Virus record (IMG/VR): IMGVR_UViG_2693429677_000024
From: a virus
Taxonomy: Duplodnaviria; Heunggongvirae; Uroviricota; Caudoviricetes
Strand: one strand, 5' to 3'
Length of the DNA stretch: 26,300 nucleotides
In this document: positions 1 to 26,300 of the stretch, in pieces
Numbering within the stretch: position 1 is the first letter of the stretch
Layout: the number at the start of each line of letters is the position of its first letter
Program-made: the position numbers and the translations under genes
Notes under the pieces: generated by a model
What the model was told of the DNA's origin: nothing
The model's input: only the letters and a program-made list of their open reading frames with translations
The model's database searches: none

Positions 1-189
1 GTGTTCACCGCCGGCAGTGCCACGGTTACTCCGAAACTGAATGGAGTGGCTGGCCCGGCATTCCAGGTTATAAAAGACAGTCTGACACTGGGACTGAATG
101 CGCTGACGCTGACGGATGTTACAAAAAATGCAGCGTATGGCGTTGAGATAGAAAGTCTGATGCTGGAGATAAATGCACCGGCAGCATAA
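1..189 (+). CDS. C-terminal 62 codons of an unidentified protein whose 5' end lies outside the window
   Basis: Open frame runs from base 1 to TAA at 187-189; the track's initial M is GTG at the window edge, so this is probably not the true start. Acidic, Cys-free tail that does not resemble a Q antiterminator. Position (just upstream of the lysis genes) fits the cargo genes often found between Q and S in lambdoid prophages, but I cannot identify it. Confidence 0.35.
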   Translation: MFTAGSATVTPKLNGVAGPAFQVIKDSLTLGLNALTLTDVTKNAAYGVEIESLMLEINAPAA

Positions 190-197
190 TAAAAAAA

Positions 198-230
198 GCC
201 AGCGACTGACCTGAAAAAGAAGACGCTGGC
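198..230. other. Stem-loop, copy 1 of a tandemly duplicated module (GCCAGCG ... CGCTGGC, preceded by a 7-A run)
   Basis: Inverted repeat GCCAGCG (198-204) / CGCTGGC (224-230) with a 19-nt loop; A7 at 191-197. Read on the - strand this is a hairpin followed by a U-run, i.e. terminator-like. Confidence 0.4.
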
Positions 231-346
231 TAAAAGGCCTTATATGTTTGTAGAGACTTATTTTTCACAGACAGCAATGATGCCTGTCAATATATTATCA
301 ATATGCGGATTGTTTCAGTTACAGATGCCTTATTAAGGAAAAAAAC

Positions 347-381
347 AGCCAGCACTGACTTTCGGTGGAGAGGTGCTGGCT
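347..381. other. Stem-loop, copy 2 of the duplicated module (AGCCAGCAC ... GTGCTGGCT, preceded by an A-run)
   Basis: 9-bp inverted repeat 347-355 / 373-381, A7 at 339-345. The flanking sequence (TTTTCnGACAGACAG ... GATG ... TGTCAA ... ATATT) is repeated after both hairpins, about 155 bp apart. Confidence 0.4.
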
Positions 382-556
382 CAAAAGGATAGATGTACTT
401 CACATGTTGCTTCTATATGGCAGTACATTTTCTGACAGACAGTGACGGATGTTGTCAAGATATTGTGTCATTTATAACCTGAATCAGGGGAGGCCGGAAT
501 GTTATCTGGCATTTTTAGCAGAGCCTGAATGCCATAATCACGGCTCCCGGCGTTGG

Positions 557-586
557 CCGTCAGTGGGTGACACTGGCGGCTTTTTT
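557..586 (+). terminator. Intrinsic terminator about 50 bp upstream of the holin start (tR'-like position in a late-operon leader)
   Basis: 9-bp stem CCGTCAGTG / CACTGGCGG (one G-U pair), 5-nt loop, followed by TTTTTTGTTTTT. Confidence 0.55.
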
Positions 587-636
587 GTTTTTCTTTACTT
601 TCATTTTCTGTCGGCGGTGACGGAGACATACATCAG

Positions 637-843
637 ATGGAAAAAATCACAACAGGTGTGTCATACACCACGTCAGCGGTGGGGACGGGATACTGGCTAC
701 TGCAGTTGCTGGACAAAGTCTCCCCATCCCAGTGGGTGGCAATAGGCGTATTGGGTAGCCTGGTGTTTGGCTTGCTGACGTATCTGACAAACCTTTATTT
801 CAAGATTAAAGAAGATAAGCGTAAGGCTGCGAGAGGTGAATAA
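637..843 (+). CDS. S: Class II holin (pinholin), phage 21 S21-type, 68 aa
   Basis: Protein [68 protein letters not shown] is near-identical in length and motif content to the phage 21 pinholin as I recall it (two TMDs, C-terminal KIxEDxRKAARGE). GGAG at 622-625; stop TAA overlaps the R start (TAATG). Confidence 0.85.
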
Positions 844-1340
844 TGTCGCCATCATTACGCAAGGCTGTTGCTGCTGCTATTGGTGGTGGGGCTGTTGCCA
901 TAGCGTCTGTGCTCATCACTGGTCCAGGTGGTAACGATGGTCTGGAAGGTGTCAGCTACATACCATACGAAGATATCGTTGGCGTATGGACTGTATGTCA
1001 CGGACACACCGGAAAAGACATCATTCCCGGTAAAACGTATACCGAAGCAGAATGCAAAGCCCTCCTGAATAAAGACCTTGCCATGGTCGCCAGACAAATT
1101 AACCCGTACATCAAAGTCGATATACCGGAAACAACGCGCGGCGCTCTTTACTCGTTCGTTTACAACGTGGGCGCTGGTAATTTCAGAACATCGACGCTTC
1201 TTCGCAAAATAAACCAGGGCGATATTAAAGGTGCATGTGATCAGTTACGGCGCTGGACATACGCTGGCGGTAAGCAATGGAAAGGCCTGATGACTCGTCG
1301 TGAGATTGAGCGTGAAGTCTGTTTGTGGGGGCAGCAATGA
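843..1340 (+). CDS. R: SAR (signal-anchor-release) endolysin, T4-lysozyme-like muramidase, R21-type
   Basis: N-terminal Gly/Ala-rich weakly hydrophobic SAR segment ([26 protein letters not shown]) followed by a lysozyme catalytic region ([23 protein letters not shown]). Matches the phage 21 R endolysin as I recall it. Stop TGA overlaps the Rz ATG (ATGA). Confidence 0.9.
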
Positions 1341-1774
1341 GCAGGGTAACCGCAATCATCTCCGCTCTGGTTATCTGCATCATCGTCTGTCTGTCATGGG
1401 CTGTTAATCATTACCGTGATAACGCCATCGCTTACAAAGAACAGCGCGATAAAGCCACATCCATCATCGCTGATATGCAGAAGCGTCAACGTGATGTAGC
1501 AGAACTCGACGCCAGATATACAAAGGAGCTTGCTGATGCTAACGCGACTATCGAAAGTCTCCGTGCTGATGTTTCTGCTGGTCGTAAGCGCCTGCAAGTC
1601 GCCGCCACCTGTGCAAAGTCAACGACCGGAGCCAGCGGCATGGGCGATGGAGAAAGCCCAGGACTTACAGCAGATGCTGAACTCAATTATTACCGTCTCC
1701 GAAGTGGAATCGACAGGATAACCGCGCAGGTTAACTACCTGCAGGAATACATCAGGACGCAATGCCTGAAATAA
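1337..1774 (+). CDS. Rz: Inner-membrane spanin component (i-spanin) Rz
   Basis: N-terminus [31 protein letters not shown] matches lambda Rz, followed by a coiled-coil-like periplasmic domain. Start placed at ATG 1337 (the track's upstream GTG is less likely). Confidence 0.85.
1536..1721 (+). CDS. Rz1: Outer-membrane lipoprotein spanin component (o-spanin) Rz1, embedded in the +1 frame of Rz
   Basis: AAGGAG at 1523-1528, 7 nt before ATG 1536. Signal peptide with lipobox VSAC, then a proline-rich mature part ([13 protein letters not shown]). Lies entirely inside Rz in another frame, the classic arrangement. Confidence 0.75.
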
Positions 1775-1806
1775 TTTTTTTGCAAATCACAAAGTCAATT
1801 TAATGA

Positions 1807-1831
1807 GCCTCGCGATGCGGGGCTTTTTTTT
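1807..1831 (+). terminator. Intrinsic terminator downstream of Rz
   Basis: Stem GCCTCGC / GCGGGGC (one G-U pair), 3-nt loop, then T8. Confidence 0.55.
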
Positions 1832-1976
1832 ACATCTGAATTTCACAGCGTATCGCAGCGCGTAACAATCCCGAGTCTTTCAGAAAGCTGAGCCTGAGAA
1901 CTGCCGTATAGGTGAGGACCTCTCGGGGACGGCTTTTCTGTGCGAACAGGCTCAACTTTCTAAAGGAAATACCGAC

Positions 1977-2417
1977 ATGAACAAATCATTAACCGTTCTT
2001 CCTTCTGGCGAATACCCGACCATGAGCAGTCTTGAGATGGTGGATTACATTAATGCTGATCGGAAATCCAAAGCGGAGGCGGAGGGGCTTTCGTTCCCCT
2101 GTAAGAAATATCGCAAACTCGAACACCGCAGTTTCATGAAGAAAGTACCCAAGGTCCTCGGGGATGCAGCTGCAAAATTTTTTGCAACTGATACCTATAT
2201 CAACGGAACAGGTGGTGTTGTGGAGAGGGATATTTGCAATTTTCCCAAGCGTGAAGCTTGCCTCATGGCAATGAGCTACAGCTATGAGCTTCAGGCGCAG
2301 GTGTATGACCACATGACTGAGCTTGAGGGTGGGAAGGAGATTAACCTTCTCGATTTCTCTGGCCTGACCGATATGGCAATCAGCGAAATGCAAAACCGTG
2401 TCGCGGCTGCTGAGTAG
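1977..2417 (+). CDS. Rha-family phage regulatory protein (N-terminal domain ORF, 146 aa) ending at an in-frame amber codon
   Basis: AAGGA at 1963-1967 precedes ATG 1977. The pattern SSLEMVDYIN ... KLEHRSFMKKV ... FATDTYINGTGG ... ACLMAMSYSYELQAQVYDHMTELE fits the conserved Rha-family layout as I remember it. Family assignment is from recall, not a search. Confidence 0.5.
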   Translation: MNKSLTVLPSGEYPTMSSLEMVDYINADRKSKAEAEGLSFPCKKYRKLEHRSFMKKVPKVLGDAAAKFFATDTYINGTGGVVERDICNFPKREACLMAMSYSYELQAQVYDHMTELEGGKEINLLDFSGLTDMAISEMQNRVAAAE

Positions 2418-2456
2418 TTCTCATTTGAAATGCACGGTCAAGCAGGTAGCGCTCTC

Positions 2457-2573
2457 ATGACTCGTCGGAAGAAAGAGAAGAAGGCCATTAAAAAGGCTGA
2501 GCAGCTTGTGAAGGATCTTATTCAGTTCAAGCTATGTGACATGGGGGACTTCCCTGATGGTAAACCAGCATGA
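2457..2573 (+). CDS. Small basic ORF (38 aa; 47 aa if started at ATG 2430), in the same frame as the Rha ORF
   Basis: MTRRKKEKKAIKKAEQLVKDLIQFKLCDMGDFPDGKPA. Its stop overlaps the next ORF's start (ATGA). Separated from the Rha ORF by a single TAG and 13 sense codons. Below the track's size cut-off. Confidence 0.25.
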   Translation: MTRRKKEKKAIKKAEQLVKDLIQFKLCDMGDFPDGKPA

Positions 2574-2773
2574 CTCCGATTGATTTCATACATAAAAATG
2601 TAACAACCGAGTTAATAAAGCTTGGATACGACCAAAACGCGGCTATGACTGGCGCTGACATGGCGGTGGAACATTACCGCCGTTGTTCACAAGCCAGCAG
2701 AAAAGGCCGAATTTTCGATGACTGCCTGTACATTGCAAAACAGTGGGCAGGTAAACAGAAAGGGAAAAAATGA
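2570..2773 (+). CDS. Hypothetical small phage protein, 67 aa
   Basis: ATG-initiated ORF coupled to the upstream small ORF by an ATGA overlap. No motif I recognise. Confidence 0.4.
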   Translation: MTPIDFIHKNVTTELIKLGYDQNAAMTGADMAVEHYRRCSQASRKGRIFDDCLYIAKQWAGKQKGKK

Positions 2774-3039
2774 CAGTCTGAGAGCCACTTTCACAACGGC
2801 TCTCCATTACAAAGCCCATCTACTGGTGGGCTTGATAATGGCTTATACCCTACACGGGATAACTTAACTGATATCCCTTTTAACGGATAAAGGTATTCAG
2901 GCCTGACACATCATGCGCTGTATCGTCGCTGTATTTCCGCATTAACCATGACCGTAGCCCGACGGGGAACTCCTCTGCGCGAGCATGCAGGATGTTGATT
3001 CATTGCTGTGCGACCGTGGTCGCACGACGCTGGTCTGTA

Positions 3040-3300
3040 AGATATTGAATTTATTGAGAATGAACCAGAGCGCCTGCGGGTCCTTTCCGGCGATCCGGCA
3101 GGCTACGGGGCGGCGACCTCGCGGGTTTTCGCTATTTATGAGTTTTTTTGAGGTGGTGGTTGTTGTTTTATCGTTTGATATATCTACTTGATAAGTAATA
3201 AGAAAGAAAAACAAACACAACAACCTGATGAGCTTTCTTATACGAAAAAGCATGTAAAATCAGAGGGTTTTACAAAAAGCGGGGTTGTTGTATTGCTTTT
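3040..3300. other. cos: cos packaging site: cosQ-like sequence, cosN (12-nt cohesive end GGGCGGCGACCT at 3108-3119), cosB
   Basis: 3081-3140 reads GGGTCCTTTCCGGCGATCCGGCAGGCTACG|GGGCGGCGACCTCGCGGGTTTTCGCTATTTATGA, which matches the lambda right-end/left-end junction as I recall it. The sequence from about 3141 to the terminase gene differs from lambda. Confidence 0.85.
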
Positions 3301-3324
3301 TTGCCGGTGGTTTATGGAGGAGCT

Positions 3325-3802
3325 GTGGCCTTTTTATTGAATAAAAGCGACATGGCCTCCTCCATCGGTATCTCAGTACAGGCATTTGATAAATGGGGTG
3401 TCCCTCCTGTTGAGCGCCGGGGGAGAGAGGTTTTCTATGACGTTAAAACTGTACTGGAGATAGATCGCGAGCGACGTCAGCAAAACCAGAAATCTTCAGA
3501 TGGTGAAAATAACCTTGAGGAAAGGCTACTTCAGGCCAGGGTTAATCTGACGGAAGAACAGGCTATTGCTCAGCGGTTAAAAAACCAGGTTGCAGAGCAT
3601 AAAGTGATTGATACCGCTTTCTCTGTTTTTGCACTGTCCCGGTTATCCGGAGAACTGGCATCTGTTCTGGACAGTATTCCGCTTTCGATGCAAAGAAAAT
3701 TCCCTGAGTTGACAGGCAGACAATTGGCTTATCTGAAAGAGCTTGTTGCGAAGGGAGCTAATAAATGCGTTGAATCTGCTGAAAAAATGAAGGAATTTGC
3801 GG

Positions 3803-3831
<29 letters not shown>
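3325..3831 (+). CDS. nu1: Terminase small subunit (Nu1-like)
   Basis: Homologous to lambda Nu1 over the central and C-terminal region (DTAFSVFALSRLSGELASVLDSIPLSMQRKFPEL). N-terminal DNA-binding region and extreme C-terminus differ from lambda. Start is ambiguous: GTG 3325 after GGAGGA at 3316-3321 is my choice; TTG 3301 and ATG 3352 are alternatives. Confidence 0.85.
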
Positions 3832-7509
<3,678 letters not shown>

Positions 7510-18545: not shown

Positions 18546-21500
18546 ATGGGTAAAGGCAGCAGTAAGGGGCATACCCCGCGTGAAGCGAAGGACAACCTGA
18601 AATCAACGCAGTTGCTGAGTGTGATTGATGCCATTAGTGAAGGCCCGATTGAAGGTCCGGTGGATGGATTAAAAAGCGTGCTGCTGAACAGTACGCCGGT
18701 GCTGGACACTGAGGGGAATACCAATATCTCCGGCGTCACGGTGGTGTTCCGGGCAGGTGAGCAGGAGCAGACTCCGCCGGAGGGGTTTGAATCCTCCGGT
18801 TCCGAGACGGTGCTGGGTACGGAAGTGAAATATGACACGCCGATCACCCGCACCATCACGTCGGCAAACATCGACCGACTGCGCTTTACCTTCGGTGTGC
18901 AGGCTCTGGTGGAAACCACTTCAAAGGGGGACCGGAATCCATCGGAAGTCCGCCTGCTGGTTCAGATACAGCGTAACGGTGGCTGGGTGACGGAAAAAGA
19001 CATCACCATTAAGGGCAAAACCACGTCGCAGTATCTGGCCTCGGTGGTGGTGGATAACCTGCCGCCGCGCCCGTTCAGTATCCGGATGCGCAGGATGACG
19101 CCGGACAGCACCACAGACCAGCTGCAGAACAAAACGCTCTGGTCATCATACACCGAAATTATCGATGTGAAACAGTGCTACCCGAACACGGCACTGGTCG
19201 GCGTGCAGGTGGACTCGGAGCAGTTCGGCAGCCAGCAGGTGAGCCGTAATTATCATCTGCGCGGGCGTATTCTGCAGGTGCCGTCGAATTATAACCCGCA
19301 GACGCGGCAATACAGCGGTATCTGGGACGGAACGTTTAAACCGGCATACAGCAACAACATGGCCTGGTGTCTGTGGGATATGCTGACCCATCCGCGCTAC
19401 GGCATGGGGAAACGTCTTGGTGCGGCGGATGTGGACAAATGGGCGCTGTATGTCATCGGCCAGAATTGCGACCAGTCGGTGCCGGATGGCTTTGGTGGCA
19501 CGGAGCCGCGCATCACCTGTAATGCGTACCTGACCACGCAGCGCAAGGCGTGGGATGTGCTCAGTGATTTCTGCTCGGCGATGCGCTGTATGCCGGTATG
19601 GAACGGGCAGACGCTGACGTTCGTGCAGGACCGACCGTCGGATAAGGTGTGGACCTATAACCGCAGTAATGTGGTGATGCCGGATGATGGCGCGCCGTTC
19701 CGCTACAGCTTCAGCGCCCTGAAGGACCGCCATAATGCCGTTGAGGTGAACTGGATTGACCCGAACAACGGCTGGGAGACGGCGACAGAGCTTGTTGAAG
19801 ATACGCAGGCCATTGCCCGTTACGGTCGTAATGTCACGAAGATGGATGCCTTTGGTTGTACCAGTCGGGGGCAGGCACACCGCGCCGGGCTGTGGCTGAT
19901 TAAAACGGAACTGCTGGAAACGCAGACCGTGGACTTCAGCGTGGGTGCTGAAGGGCTTCGCCATGTACCGGGCGATGTTATTGAAATCTGCGATGATGAC
20001 TATGCGGGGATCAGCACCGGTGGGCGCGTGCTGGCGGTGAACAGCCAGACCCGGACGCTGACGCTCGACCGTGAAATCACGCTGCCATCCTCCGGTACCA
20101 CGCTGATAAGCCTGGTTGACGGAAGTGGCAATCCGGTCAGCGTGGAGGTCCAGTCCGTCACCGACGGCGTGAAGGTAAAAGTGAGCCGTGTTCCTGACGG
20201 CGTTGCCGGATACAGCGTATGGGGGCTGAAGCTGCCGACGCTGCGCCAGCGCCTGTTCCGCTGCGTGAGTATCCGTGAGAACGATGACGGCACGTATGCC
20301 ATCACCGCCGTGCAGCATGTACCGGAAAAAGAGGCCATCGTGGATAACGGGGCGCACTTTGACGGCGACCAGAGCGGCACGGTGAATGGTGTCACGCCGA
20401 CAGCGGTGCAGCACCTGACTGCCGAAGTCACCGCAGACAGCGGGGAATATCAGGTGCTGGCGCGCTGGGATACGCCGAAGGTGGTGAAGGGGGGGAGCTT
20501 TATGCTTCGCCTGACCGTGGCAGCGGATGACGGCAGTGAGCGGCTGGTCAGCACGGCCCGGACGACGGAAACCACATACCGCTTCAGGCAGCTGGCGTTG
20601 GGGCGTTACACGCTGACAGTCCGGGCGGTAAATGCCCGGGGACAGCAGGGCGATCCGGCGTCGGTATCGTTCCGGATTGCCGCACCGGCAGCGCCGTCAC
20701 AGATTGAGCTGACGCCGGGCTATTTTCAGATAACCGCCACGCCGCATCTTGCGGTTTATGATCCGACGGTACAGTTTGAATTCTGGTTTTCTGAAACGAA
20801 GATTTCAGATGTCTCACAGGTGGACAAATCTGCCCGCTATCTTGGTACGGCACTGTACTGGGTAGCCTCCGGCCAGAATATTAAGCCGGGCCATGATTAT
20901 TACTTTTATGTTCGCAGTGTGAATACCGTTGGCAAATCGGCATTCGTGGAGGCTGTCGGCCAGCCGGGTAATAATCCTGAAGAGTATCTCAATTTTTTTG
21001 AAGGGAAAATAAACAGCACCCTGCTGGGGCAGGAGCTGAATGATCGTATTAATGCCTCTGCATTGCGCAGTGAAGTTGAGCAACTGGAGGATGAGGTCAA
21101 TCAGCGACTGGAGAGTGATATTGCCGGGGTGACCCAAAAAATCGGGGAAACTGAAAACAGCCTCACGCAGCTGGTTGCTAAAAAAAATGATGAGCAGTCA
21201 CTGGCCATATCCCAGGTGAGTCAGAAAGTGGACAACGTCAGTAGCGAACTCACGCAAACGGTCAGTCAGAGTAATGAGGAGAATGCACGCCAGATTGCGC
21301 AGGTTCGTCAGTATGTGGATGAAAAAAGCAGTGAAATCATCTCGACGACAGACAAAAAACTGGGCGAGCAGGAAGCAACAATCCAGCAGATACAAAAGGT
21401 TCAGACAGACACCAGTAATAACCTGAACAGTATGTGGGCCGTGAAACTGCAGCAGATGCAGGATGGTCGCCTTTACATTGCGGGTATCGGTGCCGGTATT

Positions 21501-22247
21501 GAGAATACCCCTGACGGTATGCAGAGTCAGGTGCTGCTGGCGGCAGACAGGATTGCGTTCATTAATCCGGAGAACGGTAACACCACTCCAGCACTGGTCA
21601 CGCAGGGGGGACAGACGTTTATCAATGAAGCGCTGATTAAGACCCTTATTGCTCCCACAATTACCAGTGGTGGCAATCCTCCTGCATTTTCCCTGACATC
21701 AGACGGAAAGCTGACCGCTAAAAATGCGGATATCAGTGGCAGTGTGAATGCGAACTCAGGGACGCTCAACAACGTCACGATAAATGAGAACTGTCAGATT
21801 AAGGGGAAACTGTCCGCCAACCAGATTGAAGGCGATATTGTCAAAACGGTCAGCAAGTCTTTCCCCCGCACGAGCACTTATGCCAGCGGCACCATTACGG
21901 TCACGATTAGTGATGATCAGAAGTTTGACCGACAGGTCATGATCCCGGCTCTGCTGTTTAAAGGAAGCAGGAAGGAAAATTATGGCAGTAATAATCAACA
22001 GTCTTATGTTTATTCTGTATGCCGTTTGCAGGTAACGAAAAACGGGACAGAAATTTTTAACCAGTCAACAACGGATGCTCCGGCGGTTTTTTCTTCCGTT
22101 ATTGATATGCCTGCGGGGCAGGGAACGTTGACGTTAAAGTTTACGGTCTCTTCTTCAATGGTCAATAACTGGACACCGACAACCAGTATCAGCGATTTGC
22201 TTGTTGTGGTGATGAAGAAATCCACTGCAGGTATCACGATTAGCTGA
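18546..22247 (+). CDS. J: Central tail fibre / host specificity protein gpJ, 1233 aa
   Basis: [24 protein letters not shown]... is lambda J-like over roughly the first 800 residues. The distal part keeps the [38 protein letters not shown] block but has a longer coiled-coil-like segment and a divergent C-terminus. Confidence 0.95.
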
Positions 22248-22265
22248 ATTTTATAACCCATATAC

Positions 22266-22291
22266 GGGCGCCAGAAATGGCGCCTTTTTTA
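22266..22291 (+). terminator. Intrinsic terminator after J
   Basis: GGGCGCC agaaat GGCGCC followed by T6. Confidence 0.6.
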
Positions 22292-22314
22292 TTGCAGAAA
22301 AGCGAGAGGTAATT

Positions 22315-22914
22315 ATGCGTAAAGTTTGTGCAGCCATGTTGTCCGCAGCCATCTGTCTGGCCGTATCCGGTGCGCCTGCATGGGCGTCTGAGCAGCAGGC
22401 CACGCTGAGCGCGGGGTATCTTCATGCCCGGACGAACGCTCCCGGCAGCGATAATCTTAACGGGATTAACGTGAAATACCGTTATGAATTTACGGACACG
22501 CTGGGGCTGGTGACGTCATTCAGCTATGCAGGAGACAGGAATCGCCAGCTTACCCGTTACAGCGATACCCGCTGGCATGAAGATTCTGTGCGTAACCGCT
22601 GGTTCAGCGTCATGGCGGGGCCCTCTGTGCGCGTGAATGAATGGTTCAGCGCGTATACGATGGCGGGTGTGGCTTACAGCCGTGTGTCGACTTTCTCCGG
22701 GGATTATCTCCGCGTAACTGACAACAAGGGAAAAACGCACGACGTGCTGACCGGAAGTGATGACGCTCGCCACAGTAACACCTCTATGGCGTGGGGAGCT
22801 GGCGTGCAGTTTAACCCGACCGAATCCGTGGCCGTTGATGTCGCTTATGAAGGCTCCGGCAGTGGCGACTGGCGCACTGACGGGTTCATCGTGGGTGTTG
22901 GTTATAAATTCTGA
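22315..22914 (+). CDS. lom: Outer-membrane beta-barrel protein Lom (Ail/OmpX family), a lysogen-expressed moron
   Basis: [38 protein letters not shown]... matches lambda Lom; signal peptide; ends in aromatic F. GAGAGG SD upstream. Confidence 0.9.
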
Positions 22915-22967: not shown

Positions 22968-25900
22968 GTGAATATGACGGTTAAGATTTCAGGTGTACTG
23001 AAAGATGGGGCAGGCAAACCGGTACAAAACTGTACCATTCAGCTAAAGGCCAGACGCAACAGCACCACGGTGGTGGTGAACACGGTGGCCTCAGAAAATC
23101 CGGATGAAGCCGGGCGTTATAGTATGGACGTTGAGTATGGCCAGTACAGCGTCACCCTGCTGGTTGAAGGTTTTCCGCCTTCGCATGCCGGGACCATCAC
23201 CGTGTATGAAGATTCTCAACCCGGTACGCTGAATGATTTTCTCGGCGCAATGACGGAGGATGATGCCCGTCCGGAGGCACTGCGCCGTTTTGAACTGATG
23301 GTGGAAGAGGTGGCGCGTAACGCGTCCGCAGTGGCACAGAACACGGAAGCCGCGAAGAAGTCAGCCAGCGATGCCAGCACATCTGCCAGTGAGGCGGCAA
23401 TCCATGCGACTGATGCTGCAGACTCAGCACGCGCAGCCAGCACGTCAGCCGGACAGGCTGCATCATCTGCTCAGTCAGCATCTTCCAGCGCAGGAACAGC
23501 ATCAACAAAGGCCACTGAAGCCTCAAAAAGTGCCTCCGCAGCAGCAGACTCAAAAACAGCGGCTGAGTCGTCTGCCAGCGCCGCGTCAACAAGTGCCGGG
23601 CAGGCCTCAGCCAGTGCCACCGCCGCCGGAAAATCGGCGGAAAGCGCGTCGTCATCGGCAACAACAGCTACCGCAAAAGCGACTGAGGCGACGAGTCAGA
23701 CTACAGCCGCGAAAGATTCAGCATTGGCAGCAAAAACCTCTGAAACAAATGCAAAGACTTCAGAAGACAATGCCGCTTCCTCTAAGGCGGCAGCTGCTGA
23801 ATCTGCAAGTTCTGCGTCTGCATCAGCCACCTCGGCGTCCGCTTCAAAAGATGAGGCGATCAGGCAGGCGTCAGCTGCGAAGGGTAGTGCTTCAACGGCA
23901 TCCACGAAAGCAACAGAGGCGGCAGGCAGTGCGACGGCTGCATCTCAGAGCAAAACTGCTGCTGAATCCGCTGCGACCCGTGCGGAAGCTGCTGCTGATC
24001 GTGCTGAAGAGATTGCCGGTGCGGTTGCGATGGAAGACGCAAGCCTTACCACTAAAGGTGTTGTGAAACTTAGCAGTGCTGTCGACAGCACCAGTGAATC
24101 GCTGGCCGCAACGCCAAAGGCAGTTAAAGCAGTCAATGACAATGCGAACAGCAGGGTGCCATCTGACCGAAAAATTAACGGGAAAGCACTGACTGGGGAT
24201 ATCACATTAACGCCGAAAGATATTGGTACTTTAAATTCAGTAACGATGTCTTTCTCTGGCGGGGCTGGGTGGTTCAAACTGGCTACGGTTACCATGCCAC
24301 AAGCGAGTTCCATCGTTTACATCACATTGATTGGTGGTGCCGGATACAACGTCGGCTCCCCACAGCAGGCAGGTATTTCAGAACTGGTTCTACGAGCAGG
24401 CAATGGAAACCCCAAAGGGATTACCGGAGCTTTGTGGAAGCGTACAGCCGTCGGATTAACGAATTTCGCCTGGATCAACACATCCGGCGATACATATGAT
24501 ATTTACGTTGAGACTGGCAATTATGCGACGAGTGTAAATATCCATTGGGATTGTACCGCAAATGCGTCAGTTTCTGTTTATACATCGCCAGCCTATTCAG
24601 CGAGTAAGCCTTCCGGCGTTACCGATGGTGTTGTTTATACGATGTATAGCTCACATCAGAAACCTACACCATCAGATATTGGAGCACTGCCAACAACCGG
24701 AGGAACAGTTTCAGGTCCGTTGTCTGTTACTGGTGGGATCACCGGGGCACTGAAGGGGAACGCCGATACCGCGACGAAACTTGCGGCAGCCAAAAAAATT
24801 AACGGTGTTAAGTTTGATGGCTCGGCGGATATTAATCTCACGCCGGAAAATATTGGTGCATTTGCCCTACGTGCGACGGGGGCTTATGCGGATTCGGATG
24901 GAGCCGTTCCGTGGAATGCTGAATCCGGTGCATATAATGTCACGCGTTCTGGCGACTCCTATCTTGTTGCAAACTTTTATACCGGTGTGGGGAGTTGCCG
25001 GACTCTCCAGATTCGCGCTCATTACAAGAATGGCGGTCTGTTTTACCGTTCTTCGCGTGATGGTTATGGCTTTGAGGAAGACTGGACTCAGATTTATACC
25101 AAAAAAGACAGCATTCCGGGAGTAAATACGACAGGTAACCAGAACACTACGGGTAATGCGGCAACAGCTACAAAACTACAGACGGCAAGAACTATCGGCG
25201 GTGTGAGCTTTGATGGTACTGCGAATATTAACTTGCCTGGTGTTAATACGACTGGTAACCAGAGCACTACAGGCAATGCAGCTACTGCCACGAAGTTGCA
25301 GACAGCGCGTACTATTAATGGCGTGTCGTTTGACGGTTCGGCAAATATTTCTCTGTCACCAGCAAATATTGGTTGCCCGGCATCTCCAACTGGCTGGTTA
25401 GGCACAGGAAGTAATGGTGCATCAATAACAACGGCTCAGTTAGTGACGATATTGCAGAATAATGGTGCCTTCAATACAAAAGCATGGGTGGCACGCTGTG
25501 CCTGGGCATACGCTGACAGCGCCTCCATACCAGACAGTGAAACAGGCTGCGGCATTATTCCACTGGCGGGGGCGGTGATAGAAGTATTCAGCCACAGTGC
25601 AACTTATTACACCATTCGAATAACAACAGCCACGACGACAAGTGTCTCTGGCGCACTCACTAATGCGGAATTTATCTATGTGTTTAATGGCACAGCTTAT
25701 TCCCCCGGATGGCGTCGTGCACTGAACACAAAGAAACTGCCCACACCGCTTGAAATTGGCGCTTACAGCATATCGGAGATTAACCAACTCAATAAAAGTT
25801 TTATCACGTCATCAAAACTCGAAGGCGGCTCGTTAGATGCAAACTTCCAGACGTTAAGTTGTTATTATTTGCAAATATTCGACATTCAGACAACAACCGA

Positions 25901-26300
25901 TAGTCCTAACATGTTCGTAAGTCCGGTTGCTGGTTACAACATGGTATTTCGTTCGACTTCATCCCGTCGATACAAGACGGATATCGAGTCTTTAGAGAAC
26001 AGGTACGCGGACGAGTTGTTGAAACTTCGTCCTGTATGGTATCGCTCGACTTGTGAAAGGGACAGAAAGGACTGGGGACATTATGGCCTTATTGCAGAAG
26101 AAGTCGGAGAGATAGCACCGCAATATGTTCACTGGCGTCCTCTTACAGACGAGGATGATCCAGGTATAGCGTCTGATAATGGGATGGTTGCAGAAGGCGT
26201 GATGTATGACCGTCTGGTTGTTCCACTCATTCATCATATTCAGAAACTGACAAAAAGGGTTGAGGAGCTTGAAGCAAAGTTAAAGCTATCCGAGCTATAA
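22968..26300 (+). CDS. stf: Side tail fibre protein Stf, 1110 aa, with C-terminal intramolecular-chaperone (peptidase S74-like) domain
   Basis: N-terminus (MN)MTVKISGVLKDGAGKPVQNCTIQLKARRNSTTVVVNTV... matches lambda Stf. Followed by a long Ala/Ser/Thr-rich region, three copies of a tail-fibre repeat (GNAATATKL...GVSFDG.ANI.L) and a C-terminal SSRRYKTDIESLENR...coiled-coil region. Start is GTG 22968 or ATG 22974. The stop codon is the last 3 bases of the window. Confidence 0.9.
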   Translation: MNMTVKISGVLKDGAGKPVQNCTIQLKARRNSTTVVVNTVASENPDEAGRYSMDVEYGQYSVTLLVEGFPPSHAGTITVYEDSQPGTLNDFLGAMTEDDARPEALRRFELMVEEVARNASAVAQNTEAAKKSASDASTSASEAAIHATDAADSARAASTSAGQAASSAQSASSSAGTASTKATEASKSASAAADSKTAAESSASAASTSAGQASASATAAGKSAESASSSATTATAKATEATSQTTAAKDSALAAKTSETNAKTSEDNAASSKAAAAESASSASASATSASASKDEAIRQASAAKGSASTASTKATEAAGSATAASQSKTAAESAATRAEAAADRAEEIAGAVAMEDASLTTKGVVKLSSAVDSTSESLAATPKAVKAVNDNANSRVPSDRKINGKALTGDITLTPKDIGTLNSVTMSFSGGAGWFKLATVTMPQASSIVYITLIGGAGYNVGSPQQAGISELVLRAGNGNPKGITGALWKRTAVGLTNFAWINTSGDTYDIYVETGNYATSVNIHWDCTANASVSVYTSPAYSASKPSGVTDGVVYTMYSSHQKPTPSDIGALPTTGGTVSGPLSVTGGITGALKGNADTATKLAAAKKINGVKFDGSADINLTPENIGAFALRATGAYADSDGAVPWNAESGAYNVTRSGDSYLVANFYTGVGSCRTLQIRAHYKNGGLFYRSSRDGYGFEEDWTQIYTKKDSIPGVNTTGNQNTTGNAATATKLQTARTIGGVSFDGTANINLPGVNTTGNQSTTGNAATATKLQTARTINGVSFDGSANISLSPANIGCPASPTGWLGTGSNGASITTAQLVTILQNNGAFNTKAWVARCAWAYADSASIPDSETGCGIIPLAGAVIEVFSHSATYYTIRITTATTTSVSGALTNAEFIYVFNGTAYSPGWRRALNTKKLPTPLEIGAYSISEINQLNKSFITSSKLEGGSLDANFQTLSCYYLQIFDIQTTTDSPNMFVSPVAGYNMVFRSTSSRRYKTDIESLENRYADELLKLRPVWYRSTCERDRKDWGHYGLIAEEVGEIAPQYVHWRPLTDEDDPGIASDNGMVAEGVMYDRLVVPLIHHIQKLTKRVEELEAKLKLSEL
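25116..25355 (+). repeat. Two tandem 120-bp in-frame repeat units inside stf (each 40 aa)
   Basis: Units 25116-25235 and 25236-25355 encode PGVNTTGNQ(N/S)TTGNAATATKLQTARTI(G/N)GVSFDG(T/S)ANI(N/S)L. A third, more divergent copy lies at about 24740-24845. Confidence 0.85.

Follow-up and report, generated by a model that had tools for sequence, protein, structure and literature searches.

Modular exchange of the C-terminus of J, the tip attachment protein and central tail fibre of lambda-type phages, is textbook knowledge on lambdoid phages, and engineered delivery vectors already make use of it; in lambda, a few substitutions in J are enough for the use of OmpF to be gained. The lambda protein itself (gpJ, P03749; PDB 8iyk, 8xck, 8xcj) is a LamB binder whose shaft, a domain name that we take over from the structural study, is a three-helix bundle in which residues 841-861 become strands in the open state (PMC11101478). 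The A8 gpJ module uses OmpC for delivery into a strain deleted for lamB, and the A8 and 1A2 modules have unlike OmpC-variant profiles (PMC11338833). The A8 chimera (Brodel et al. 2024), solved in a closed form (PDB 9wca) and in complex with OmpC of EDL933 (PDB 9wcb), was engineered as a fusion to lambda J at aa 964 and accordingly has the short shaft of lambda. The Stx2a siphophage vB_EcoS_phi330 (PV189401), which belongs to the genus Pankowvirus, is OmpC-dependent as judged by Keio knockout and complementation, and in AlphaFold3 predictions residues E953-S962 of its central tail fibre lie inside the OmpC barrel and A1015-P1020 at its rim (PMC12502783). In the more distant F2-type pyocin, the shaft of the J homologue has been solved as a coiled coil of three strands, and trimers of the side fibres attach to this long shaft at a glycine kink (PMC13455828).

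Here, a J gene within a stretch of 26,300 nucleotides of DNA (hereafter the window) is compared with these systems. The distal third of this intact lambda-type gene has very probably been recombined among lambdoid prophage alleles, and appears to combine a long trimeric shaft of 29-residue repeats with a tip of the A8/phi330 class that would most likely act on OmpC.

The J gene and its conserved proximal part

The J gene (18546..22247; 1233 aa and a stop codon, from the ORF list and its translation; this and all other features described here are on the + strand) lies in the DNA of an E. coli prophage and encodes a lambda-type tail-tip protein of modular make-up. Among the complete E. coli genomes, none matches the window exactly, the best match covering 92% of it at 96.9% identity. 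The tail genes are arranged in the order H-M-L-K-I-J-lom-stf (from the ORF list, with Lom and Stf recognized by Pfam), which is the order also found around J in lambda, phage 21 and PhiR49_2. A terminator-like hairpin with a T-run, detected by a consensus scan and in the sequence (22266..22295), begins 19 nt past the J stop codon, and a terminator is annotated at the corresponding position in phage 21. Six of six Pfam models (Phage-tail_3, FNIII-A_GpJ, Ig_J, Ig_J_second, Phage_Tail_Tip and Ig_GpJ_C) match J above their curated cut-offs, in the order expected for a lambda-type tip attachment protein.

The hub domains and the first FNIII/Ig domain (aa 1-715; 18546..20690; GC about 0.60) constitute the conserved chassis of the protein, in which 698 of the 715 residues (98%) are identical to lambda J and amino acid identity to lambda, phage 21 and PhiR49_2 is 97-98%. 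The second FNIII/Ig domain (aa 716-818; 20691..20999; Pfam Ig_J_second at 716-818) is 79% identical to its lambda counterpart; a variable, lower-GC region starts near nt 20750-20800, and at 20796 the DNA identity is down to 70%. The beta-prism, or 'central straight fibre' (aa 963-1085; 21432..21800; Pfam Phage_Tail_Tip at 945-1073), is 70% identical to lambda, can be aligned with the chains solved for lambda and A8 gpJ713 and includes the [10 protein letters not shown]...NANSG block, so that the conserved block which an earlier reading of the sequence alone had placed ahead of the C-terminal domain was indeed found. The same block, the gene position, the domain order with two FNIII domains and the convertible shaft segment are shared with lambda gpJ, which differs in having a shaft 101 residues shorter and a tip that is 43% identical with loop indels. 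From the N-terminus, the protein comprises a conserved hub with FNIII domains, a long alpha-helical shaft, the beta-prism and an Ig-like receptor-binding domain.

A long helical shaft with diverged 29-residue repeats

At 1233 aa, against 1132 aa in lambda, J is longer by a net 101 aa in the alignment, in agreement with the estimate of about 100 extra residues in the sequence-only reading. The 101 residues that lambda J lacks form a single alignment gap (aa 839-939; 21060..21362); the other indels relative to lambda, all in the C-terminal domain, are -4, +5 and -1 and sum to zero. The block sits in the alpha-helical shaft, here in a long form (aa 819-962; 21000..21431, supported by the AlphaFold2 monomer model and the hydrophobic period), with the second FNIII domain on one side and the beta-prism on the other. 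The extra length had been attributed to a Q/E/S-rich segment at about 21030-21440, and the gap falls inside it, Q, E and S making up 36% of J826-962 vs 17% of J1-800. In the Pfam scan, aa 819-944 matched no model. A structure prediction shows J826-960 as one continuous helix (pLDDT 70-82) in the AlphaFold2 monomer model, which has a pTM of 0.35 and a low-confidence beta-prism and is unable to tell a straight trimeric bundle from a folded-back shaft. The shaft includes two glycines, G861 and G867, six residues apart.

The hydrophobic periodicity of the shaft, whose predicted helix is amphipathic, peaks at 3.64 residues, a value matched by 0 of 1000 shuffles, and the heptad signal at 3.5 residues is not above background, 340 of 1000 shuffles being as strong. 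The period of 3.64 results from an internal repeat of 29 residues, which correspond to 8 helical turns: self-similarity delineates about four diverged tandem copies (aa 842-957; 21069..21416), with z=6.9 at offset 29 and z=4.0 at offset 58, the best offset being reached by none of 1000 shuffles. Given this period and the 8-turn repeat, a canonical heptad (7/2) left-handed coiled coil was rejected, and the initial description of the segment as heptad-like has to be abandoned. Tandem Repeats Finder detected no DNA-level tandem repeat in 20900-21600, and on these grounds the idea that the long shaft arose by recent DNA-level tandem duplication was rejected; since the repeats are visible at the protein level only, they are old. 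The 101 residues are not an integer multiple of the 29-residue repeat, which counts against the interpretation given next.

We infer that the shaft, with about four such repeats, forms a trimeric bundle of helices, in which the 8 core positions per 29 residues would amount to one heptad and two hendecads and would accordingly yield a nearly straight bundle. If the shaft is continuous as in the monomer model, it would extend the central fibre by roughly 15 nm relative to lambda. The equivalent of lambda residues 841-861 is retained and aligns directly after the 101-residue insertion; because this convertible segment is kept, opening is probably triggered as in lambda.

When the shaft alone was compared with the PDB, nothing informative was found except lambda and A8 at its C-terminal end, and matches to the J homologues of T1 and pyocin arise only with the beta-prism in the query. 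The J-like proteins of F2-type pyocin (PyoF10, PDB 25vf) and T1 (PDB 9l9p) also have an extended shaft before the beta-prism; they are distant relatives that align weakly with J aa 862-1033 (E 1e-7 to 7e-6). The T1 protein (9l9p_S) contains tandem helical repeats in the segment that aligns with the shaft repeats described here, with a repeat of about 33 residues (counted by eye) vs 29. In the F2 pyocin, unlike the present case, the shaft bears side fibres and an insertion domain, and the J homologue is devoid of a receptor-binding domain of its own. By analogy with this pyocin, in which the side fibres sit at the G955 kink of an exceptionally long three-stranded shaft (PMC13455828), the long shaft might be more than a spacer and provide a docking platform for extra fibre proteins. 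This proposal draws on the weak alignment of the pyocin homologue to J 891-1032 (E about 7e-6) and on the presence of two shaft glycines, but appears very unlikely considering that the monomer model of the shaft is free of a kink, that no PyoF13-like gene is seen in the window (which ends at 26300), and that the sole downstream fibre gene seen carries a lambda-type N-terminal attachment domain (PF08400), of a kind which in Ur-lambda surrounds the tail tip, and not the shaft, as a collar (PMC12617516).

The receptor-binding tip and its likely receptor

The receptor-binding domain (aa 1086-1233; 21801..22244; Pfam Ig_GpJ_C), for which the model shows a beta-sandwich (pLDDT 71-95), is of the A8/phi330 class and a predicted OmpC binder. 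Over these last 148 aa, the identity of J amounts to 43% with lambda, 73% with phage 21 and 64% with PhiR49_2, and the alignment to lambda J aa ~990-1132 (42-43% identity) requires loop indels of -4, +5 and -1. The tip thus lacks the close similarity and equal loop lengths that define a LamB-type lambda J domain, and the divergence of the last ~150 residues from the LamB-binding domain, suspected from the sequence, is confirmed: in place of a close lambda alignment at equal length, the comparison yields 43% identity in the tip and 101 additional residues.

The A8-derived part of PDB 9wca/9wcb, in contrast to lambda, is identical to the tip at 154 of 176 positions (87.5%); the A8 protein sequence used was that of the PDB alignment, the A8/1A2 DNA in the Nature supplement being OCR-damaged. 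The phi330 tip is 87.2% identical, and Foldseek matches the domain to 9wcb ('A8 gpJ 713 ... with OmpC') with 87% identity and a TM of 0.72. Similarity to phi330 extends to the hairpins whose OmpC contacts are AlphaFold3 predictions (PMC12502783): by alignment, [10 protein letters not shown] (aa 1144-1153; 21975..22004), the equivalent of phi330 E953-S962, retains 8 of 10 residues and holds a 5-residue insertion (NQQSY) that lambda lacks, and VNNWTP (aa 1206-1211; 22161..22178), the equivalent of A1015-P1020, retains 5 of 6, for a total of 13 of 16 identical residues at equal lengths. Upstream of the tip, phi330 carries another allele. The tip of PhiR49_2 is of another type, which resembles, by eye and in the OCR-damaged supplement sequence, the module of 1A2 gpJ, also an OmpC binder.

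The likeness of the tip to A8 and phi330 (87-88%), together with the demonstrated use of OmpC by both, makes OmpC the likely receptor by homology, and the tip, as a trimer, would most likely dock on this trimeric porin rather than on LamB. The earlier suggestion that the phage may use a receptor other than LamB is thereby supported. One could argue that the tip still binds LamB, its divergence being drift inside a LamB-binding family with the host range of lambda, given that it shares the Pfam family (Ig_GpJ_C) and the fold of the lambda domain and is 73% identical to the tip of phage 21, the receptor of which was not found in the literature searched. With only 42-43% identity to the lambda domain, indels in three loops, and OmpC use by the two closest characterized relatives, one of them in a lamB-deleted strain (PMC11338833, PMC12502783), this is extremely unlikely.

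The specificity within the porins deserves separate consideration. Of the 176 positions, 22 carry substitutions with respect to A8; these are grouped at aa 1135-1147, 1155-1168, 1179-1180 and 1205-1206, and several of them lie in or adjoin the predicted contact loops (aa 1135-1147, 1205-1206), so that the range of OmpC alleles recognized, or even the porin, could differ. Binding to another outer-membrane protein (OmpF, PhoE or other) or to a narrow subset of OmpC alleles would be compatible with this clustering, with the three changes within the two hairpins predicted to touch OmpC and with the different OmpC-variant profiles of A8 and 1A2 (PMC11338833), but seems unlikely because 13 of the 16 hairpin residues are kept, the NQQSY insertion included, and because phi330 and A8, which both use OmpC, have dissimilar sequences in the shorter TSTY/TNSY loop. 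No paper on the receptors of the PhiR phages was found in the literature searched.

Mosaic structure and base composition of distal J

Sliding identity and mismatch maps against the J genes of an E2348/69 prophage and of STECUZB006 reveal a mosaic. The long-shaft J of E2348/69 shows a single difference from the J gene studied here in 20490-21667, which covers the long shaft, and from 21773 to the stop codon 226 differing columns (about 52% identity). The short-shaft J of STECUZB006 (1160 aa) has one difference from 21519 to the stop codon, which covers the tip, and left of 21415 is divergent, with 311 differing columns in 20957-21415 and 219 nt fewer. On the mismatch maps, the left junction zone, where identity to STECUZB006 passes from divergent to near-identical, is at 21416..21518, and the right junction, where identity to E2348/69 ends, is at 21760..21773. 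Both junctions fall in conserved linkers, the right one a few codons past the conserved block at which the gpJ chimeras of Brodel et al. were fused (lambda aa 964; PMC11338833). The long shaft and this tip are not always found together, as each of the two compared genes shares one of them, and distal J therefore consists of at least two independently assorting modules, the shaft and the tip. J would have been assembled via homologous recombination among lambdoid prophage J alleles. The original proposal that the receptor-binding module was acquired by recombination is thus supported, through the mosaic seen in the identity maps, but neither the picture of a single acquired module nor the argument from GC content holds.

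The GC content of J drops from 0.596 in 18546-20747 to 0.480 in 20748-22247, and GC3 from 0.65-0.78 to 0.52-0.57, so that distal J is AT-richer, as had been judged by eye. The drop starts near 20750, a position in the second FNIII domain that precedes the shaft. However, it is not specific to this phage: an equivalent decrease is seen in lambda (0.59 to 0.54) and phage 21 (0.595 to 0.49) and also in the J genes of PhiR49_2, E2348/69 and STECUZB006. Being common to every lambdoid J tested, it does not mark recent acquisition, and low GC as a sign of such an event was rejected. In the window, 38 of 496 tiles of 1500 nt are as GC-low as distal J. A recent import of the distal segment into this phage alone, from a lower-GC non-lambdoid donor, could be read from the contrast in GC (0.48 vs 0.60) and GC3 (0.54 vs about 0.72), but is highly improbable in view of the same step in all five compared genes, the similarly low GC of distal stf (0.477) and the fact that the nearest relatives of all distal segments are E. 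coli lambdoid J alleles with 99-100% identity.

Distribution of shaft lengths and implications

Of 5426 complete E. coli genomes, 771 (about 14%) have J genes that are matched by a 309-nt probe spanning the extra block (21057-21365). Among sequenced phages, the long-shaft stretch matched just two, PhiR40_1 and PhiR49_2, both with a long-form J of 1232 aa; PhiR49_2 has the same long shaft as the J studied here, at 71% identity. The J proteins of E. coli thus fall into shaft length classes, with lambda the shortest, phage 21 (J of 1160 aa) longer by 28 aa and the long form by 101 aa. This length polymorphism, of which no description was found in the literature searched, has a 29-residue repeat basis and assorts independently of the tip.

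The number of 29-residue repeats could conceivably act as a second dial of host range, either with a length selected for the tip to reach the porin through O-antigen or capsule layers of varying thickness or with the long shaft giving accessory fibres a place to dock, like that of the F2 pyocin, although we rate this as rather unlikely. The length forms that such a dial would set, those of lambda, phage 21 and the long J, would differ by up to about 15 nm. Should shaft length affect access to the porin on smooth or encapsulated strains, it would offer an extra design parameter for lambda-based vectors and an aid to the prediction of prophage host range.

OmpC is reliably expressed by E. coli in the gut. 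The main result of the comparison is a confident annotation, drawn from homology, of a prophage that most likely adsorbs via OmpC and not via LamB.

Domain organization of J and its genomic context

The J gene of the window (18546..22247, + strand) encodes 1233 aa, as given by the ORF list and translation, and its distal third is the region of interest. It is embedded in a lambda-like late operon of an E. coli lambdoid prophage, with terminase, portal, head and tail genes upstream; on the downstream side, an Ail/Lom gene occupies 22315-22914 and the gene for a side tail fibre 22968-26300. Pfam recovers the full J architecture, namely Phage-tail_3, FNIII-A_GpJ, Ig_J (aa 610-714), Ig_J_second (716-818), Phage_Tail_Tip (945-1073) and Ig_GpJ_C (1110-1233), with no Pfam model covering aa 819-944. 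The hub is intact and lambda-type, the beta-prism (aa 963-1085) is lambda-like, and the tip (aa 1086-1233) is Ig-like and belongs to the class of A8 gpJ 713, an engineered chimera on lambda J.

A strong terminator-like hairpin (22266-22295; 8 bp stem with 6 GC pairs, then a T-run) is located between the J stop, 19 nt away, and lom, and in phage 21 the matching position is annotated as a terminator. Nothing suggests that the four minus-strand ORFs of 80-107 aa overlapping distal J (20814-21137, 21527-21778, 21756-21998 and 22010-22261) are genes. The side tail fibre ORF (1110 aa) ends at the window edge. Its lambda-type attachment domain (PF08400) spans aa 3-136; the protein also has a Phage_fiber_2 repeat and, at its C-terminus, an intramolecular-chaperone domain of the Peptidase_S74 family (aa 998-1054). 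By this architecture the fibre is of the self-cleaving endosialidase/T5-pb1 type, not of the lambda Stf/Tfa type.

An extended shaft built of 29-residue repeats

J was aligned with the homologs from lambda (1132 aa), phage 21 (1160 aa) and PhiR49_2 (1232 aa). The extended segment, divergent C-terminus and lower GC emphasized in the sequence-only reading are all real. The extra length of about 100 aa over lambda J maps to a single gap in the protein alignment (net +101 residues; aa 839-939, nt 21060-21362); phage 21 J possesses 28 of these residues, and the long form of PhiR49_2 J is identical in kind to that of the window. Identity to lambda J is 98% over aa 1-715, 79% in the second FNIII domain, 26% of alignable residues in the shaft, 70% in the beta-prism and 43% in the receptor-binding domain, so that the last ~150 residues indeed differ from the LamB-binding domain of lambda.

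The extra segment had been described as heptad-like and Q/E/S-rich. The composition holds (Q+E+S share of 36%, vs 17% in proximal J) but the heptad does not: the hydrophobic power spectrum of the shaft peaks at 3.64 residues, a peak reached by none of 1000 shuffles, and shows no signal at the heptad period of 3.5. The shaft, predicted to be a long amphipathic helix, departs from the heptad because it consists of a 29-residue internal repeat. BLOSUM self-similarity stands out at offsets 29 (z=6.9) and 58 (z=4.0), with the observed maximum reached by no shuffle, and four repeats align with conserved core positions when J is laid out in 29-residue rows from aa 842. We read these rows as 8 core positions per 29 residues, equal to one heptad plus two hendecads; an undistorted alpha-helix has nearly this period. 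The AlphaFold2 monomer model shows a single continuous helix at J826-960 (pLDDT 70-82). The near-undistorted period fits the "alpha-helical shaft" of lambda J, which is a three-helix bundle (PMC11101478). No tandem repeat was detected in the shaft at the DNA level, and the repeats are therefore old.

The tip and its probable receptor

By sequence, distal J matches A8 gpJ 713 (9wca, 9wcb) better than any other PDB entry, lambda gpJ included, with 154 of the 176 A8-contributed residues identical (87.5%). Foldseek matched the modelled tip domain to 9wcb (87% identity, TM 0.72), entitled [quoted passage not shown]. A8 was selected on delivery into a lamB-deleted strain (PMC11338833; see also bioRxiv 10.1101/2025.02.28.640725) and recognizes most of 23 OmpC variants (PMC11338833). 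The tip is also 87.2% identical to that of the Stx2a siphophage phi330, which does not plate on the Keio ompC mutant unless complemented and whose predicted OmpC-contact hairpins are E953-S962 and A1015-P1020 (PMC12502783). The equivalent predicted contacts in the alignment, J aa 1144-1153 and 1206-1211 (VNNWTP), are identical to phi330 at 13 of 16 residues, and the tip hairpins contain a five-residue insertion that lambda lacks. Identity to the lambda and phage 434 tips is 42-43% each; phage 434 uses OmpC as well, with another tip type. Thus, the proposal of a receptor other than LamB is supported by homology. Because some of the 22 residues that differ from A8 are clustered close to the predicted contact loops, we infer OmpC as the best-supported receptor rather than assign it.

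Independent assortment of shaft and tip

Pairwise mismatch maps reveal a mosaic. Compared with the E2348/69 prophage gpJ, the window J has one difference in 20490-21667, but between 21773 and the stop 226 columns differ. Compared with STECUZB006 J (1160 aa), it is divergent over 20957-21415, where the window is 219 nt longer, and has a single difference from 21519 to the stop. The long shaft and the tip therefore have different nearest relatives, with junction zones at ~21416-21518 (left) and ~21760-21773 (right). At least three tip types occur with the long shaft (those of the window, E2348/69 and PhiR49_2), and the window's tip type is found with short shafts too (STECUZB006, phi330). The suggestion of recombination is accordingly correct, yet describes ordinary lambdoid mosaicism. 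The E2348/69 gene (EPEC; L004 848-4562), which combines the window's long shaft (1 difference over 1178 nt) with another tip type, is annotated as frameshifted, i.e., a pseudogene.

GC content falls from 0.596 in 18546-20747 to 0.480 in 20748-22247, and GC3 from 0.65-0.78 to 0.52-0.57. Distal J is thus AT-richer, as had been noticed by eye, but this is not peculiar to the window phage: GC drops within J also in lambda (0.59 to 0.54), phage 21 (0.595 to 0.49), PhiR49_2, E2348/69 and STECUZB006, and we reject the drop as a mark of recent import. The distal half of stf (24051-26300; 0.477) shows this drop too. It characterizes the ends of these genes that serve host recognition and are exchanged fast. 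GC is also low (0.475) in the leftmost part of the window (1-3300), before the terminase genes, where the lowest-GC 1500-nt tiles of the window lie, around 1950-4000.

The distal J allele recurs at 100% identity in a gpJ gene of E. coli 377323_2f, and six further genomes carry it at 99.7% identity or more; the whole window has no exact match among complete E. coli genomes (best, 92% coverage at 96.9% identity). Of 5426 complete E. coli genomes, 771 have J genes that match the long-shaft insert; among sequenced phage isolates, only PhiR40_1 and PhiR49_2 match it. In 377323_2f (NZ_CP039404), the identical allele (L006 17847-21548) resides in a prophage with another head module, a ClpP-like protease/major capsid fusion, and a second prophage (1683145-1706261) matches the window head and tail genes at 98% identity, with 90% of the query covered. 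Either the allele moves between lambdoid chassis or co-resident prophages recombine.

Proposed role of the long shaft

The J trimer would form the tail tip and central fibre, with the three shaft helices in a straight bundle that could lengthen the fibre by up to ~15 nm (101 residues x 0.15 nm). The tip trimer would dock on the OmpC trimer, and the signal would be relayed upward through the beta-prism to the segment at the C-terminal end of the shaft that corresponds to lambda 841-861, opening the tube. In the open state of lambda J, this helical segment has become a strand (PMC11101478); in the alignment, its equivalent is kept directly after the 101-residue insertion. The simplest idea is that the long shaft is a spacer to reach the porin through surface polysaccharide. 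A dock for side fibres, as on the long shaft of the F2 pyocin (PMC13455828), appears less likely given that the fibre encoded downstream of J has a lambda-type N-terminal attachment domain.

Close counterparts of the long shaft are known from PhiR49_2 and from hundreds of gpJ genes annotated in E. coli; likewise, lambda J is a close counterpart of the chassis, and A8 and phi330 of the tip, so every component of J has a close known counterpart. The J-like proteins of the F2 pyocin, solved as three-stranded, and of phage T1 have long shafts too. In the literature searched, we found no discussion of a 29-residue repeat basis of shaft-length classes or of their assortment independent of the tip. 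The C-terminus of 1A2, a second engineered OmpC-binding module, resembles the PhiR49_2-type tip (L002 3844-7539; …WPSGTITV…YSSC…), as read from OCR-damaged text in the supplement of PMC11338833. If 1A2 has this tip, both long-shaft tip types in isolated or engineered phages would bind OmpC. The T1 protein (PDB 9l9p_S) contains, at aa 928-1000, a near-perfect tandem repeat of ~33 residues (ETEALSREIDQLKAQIGDDIQASLTDIRE…, twice) in the segment that aligns with the shaft repeats of the window J. Repeat-based variation of shaft length may be general in J-like proteins.
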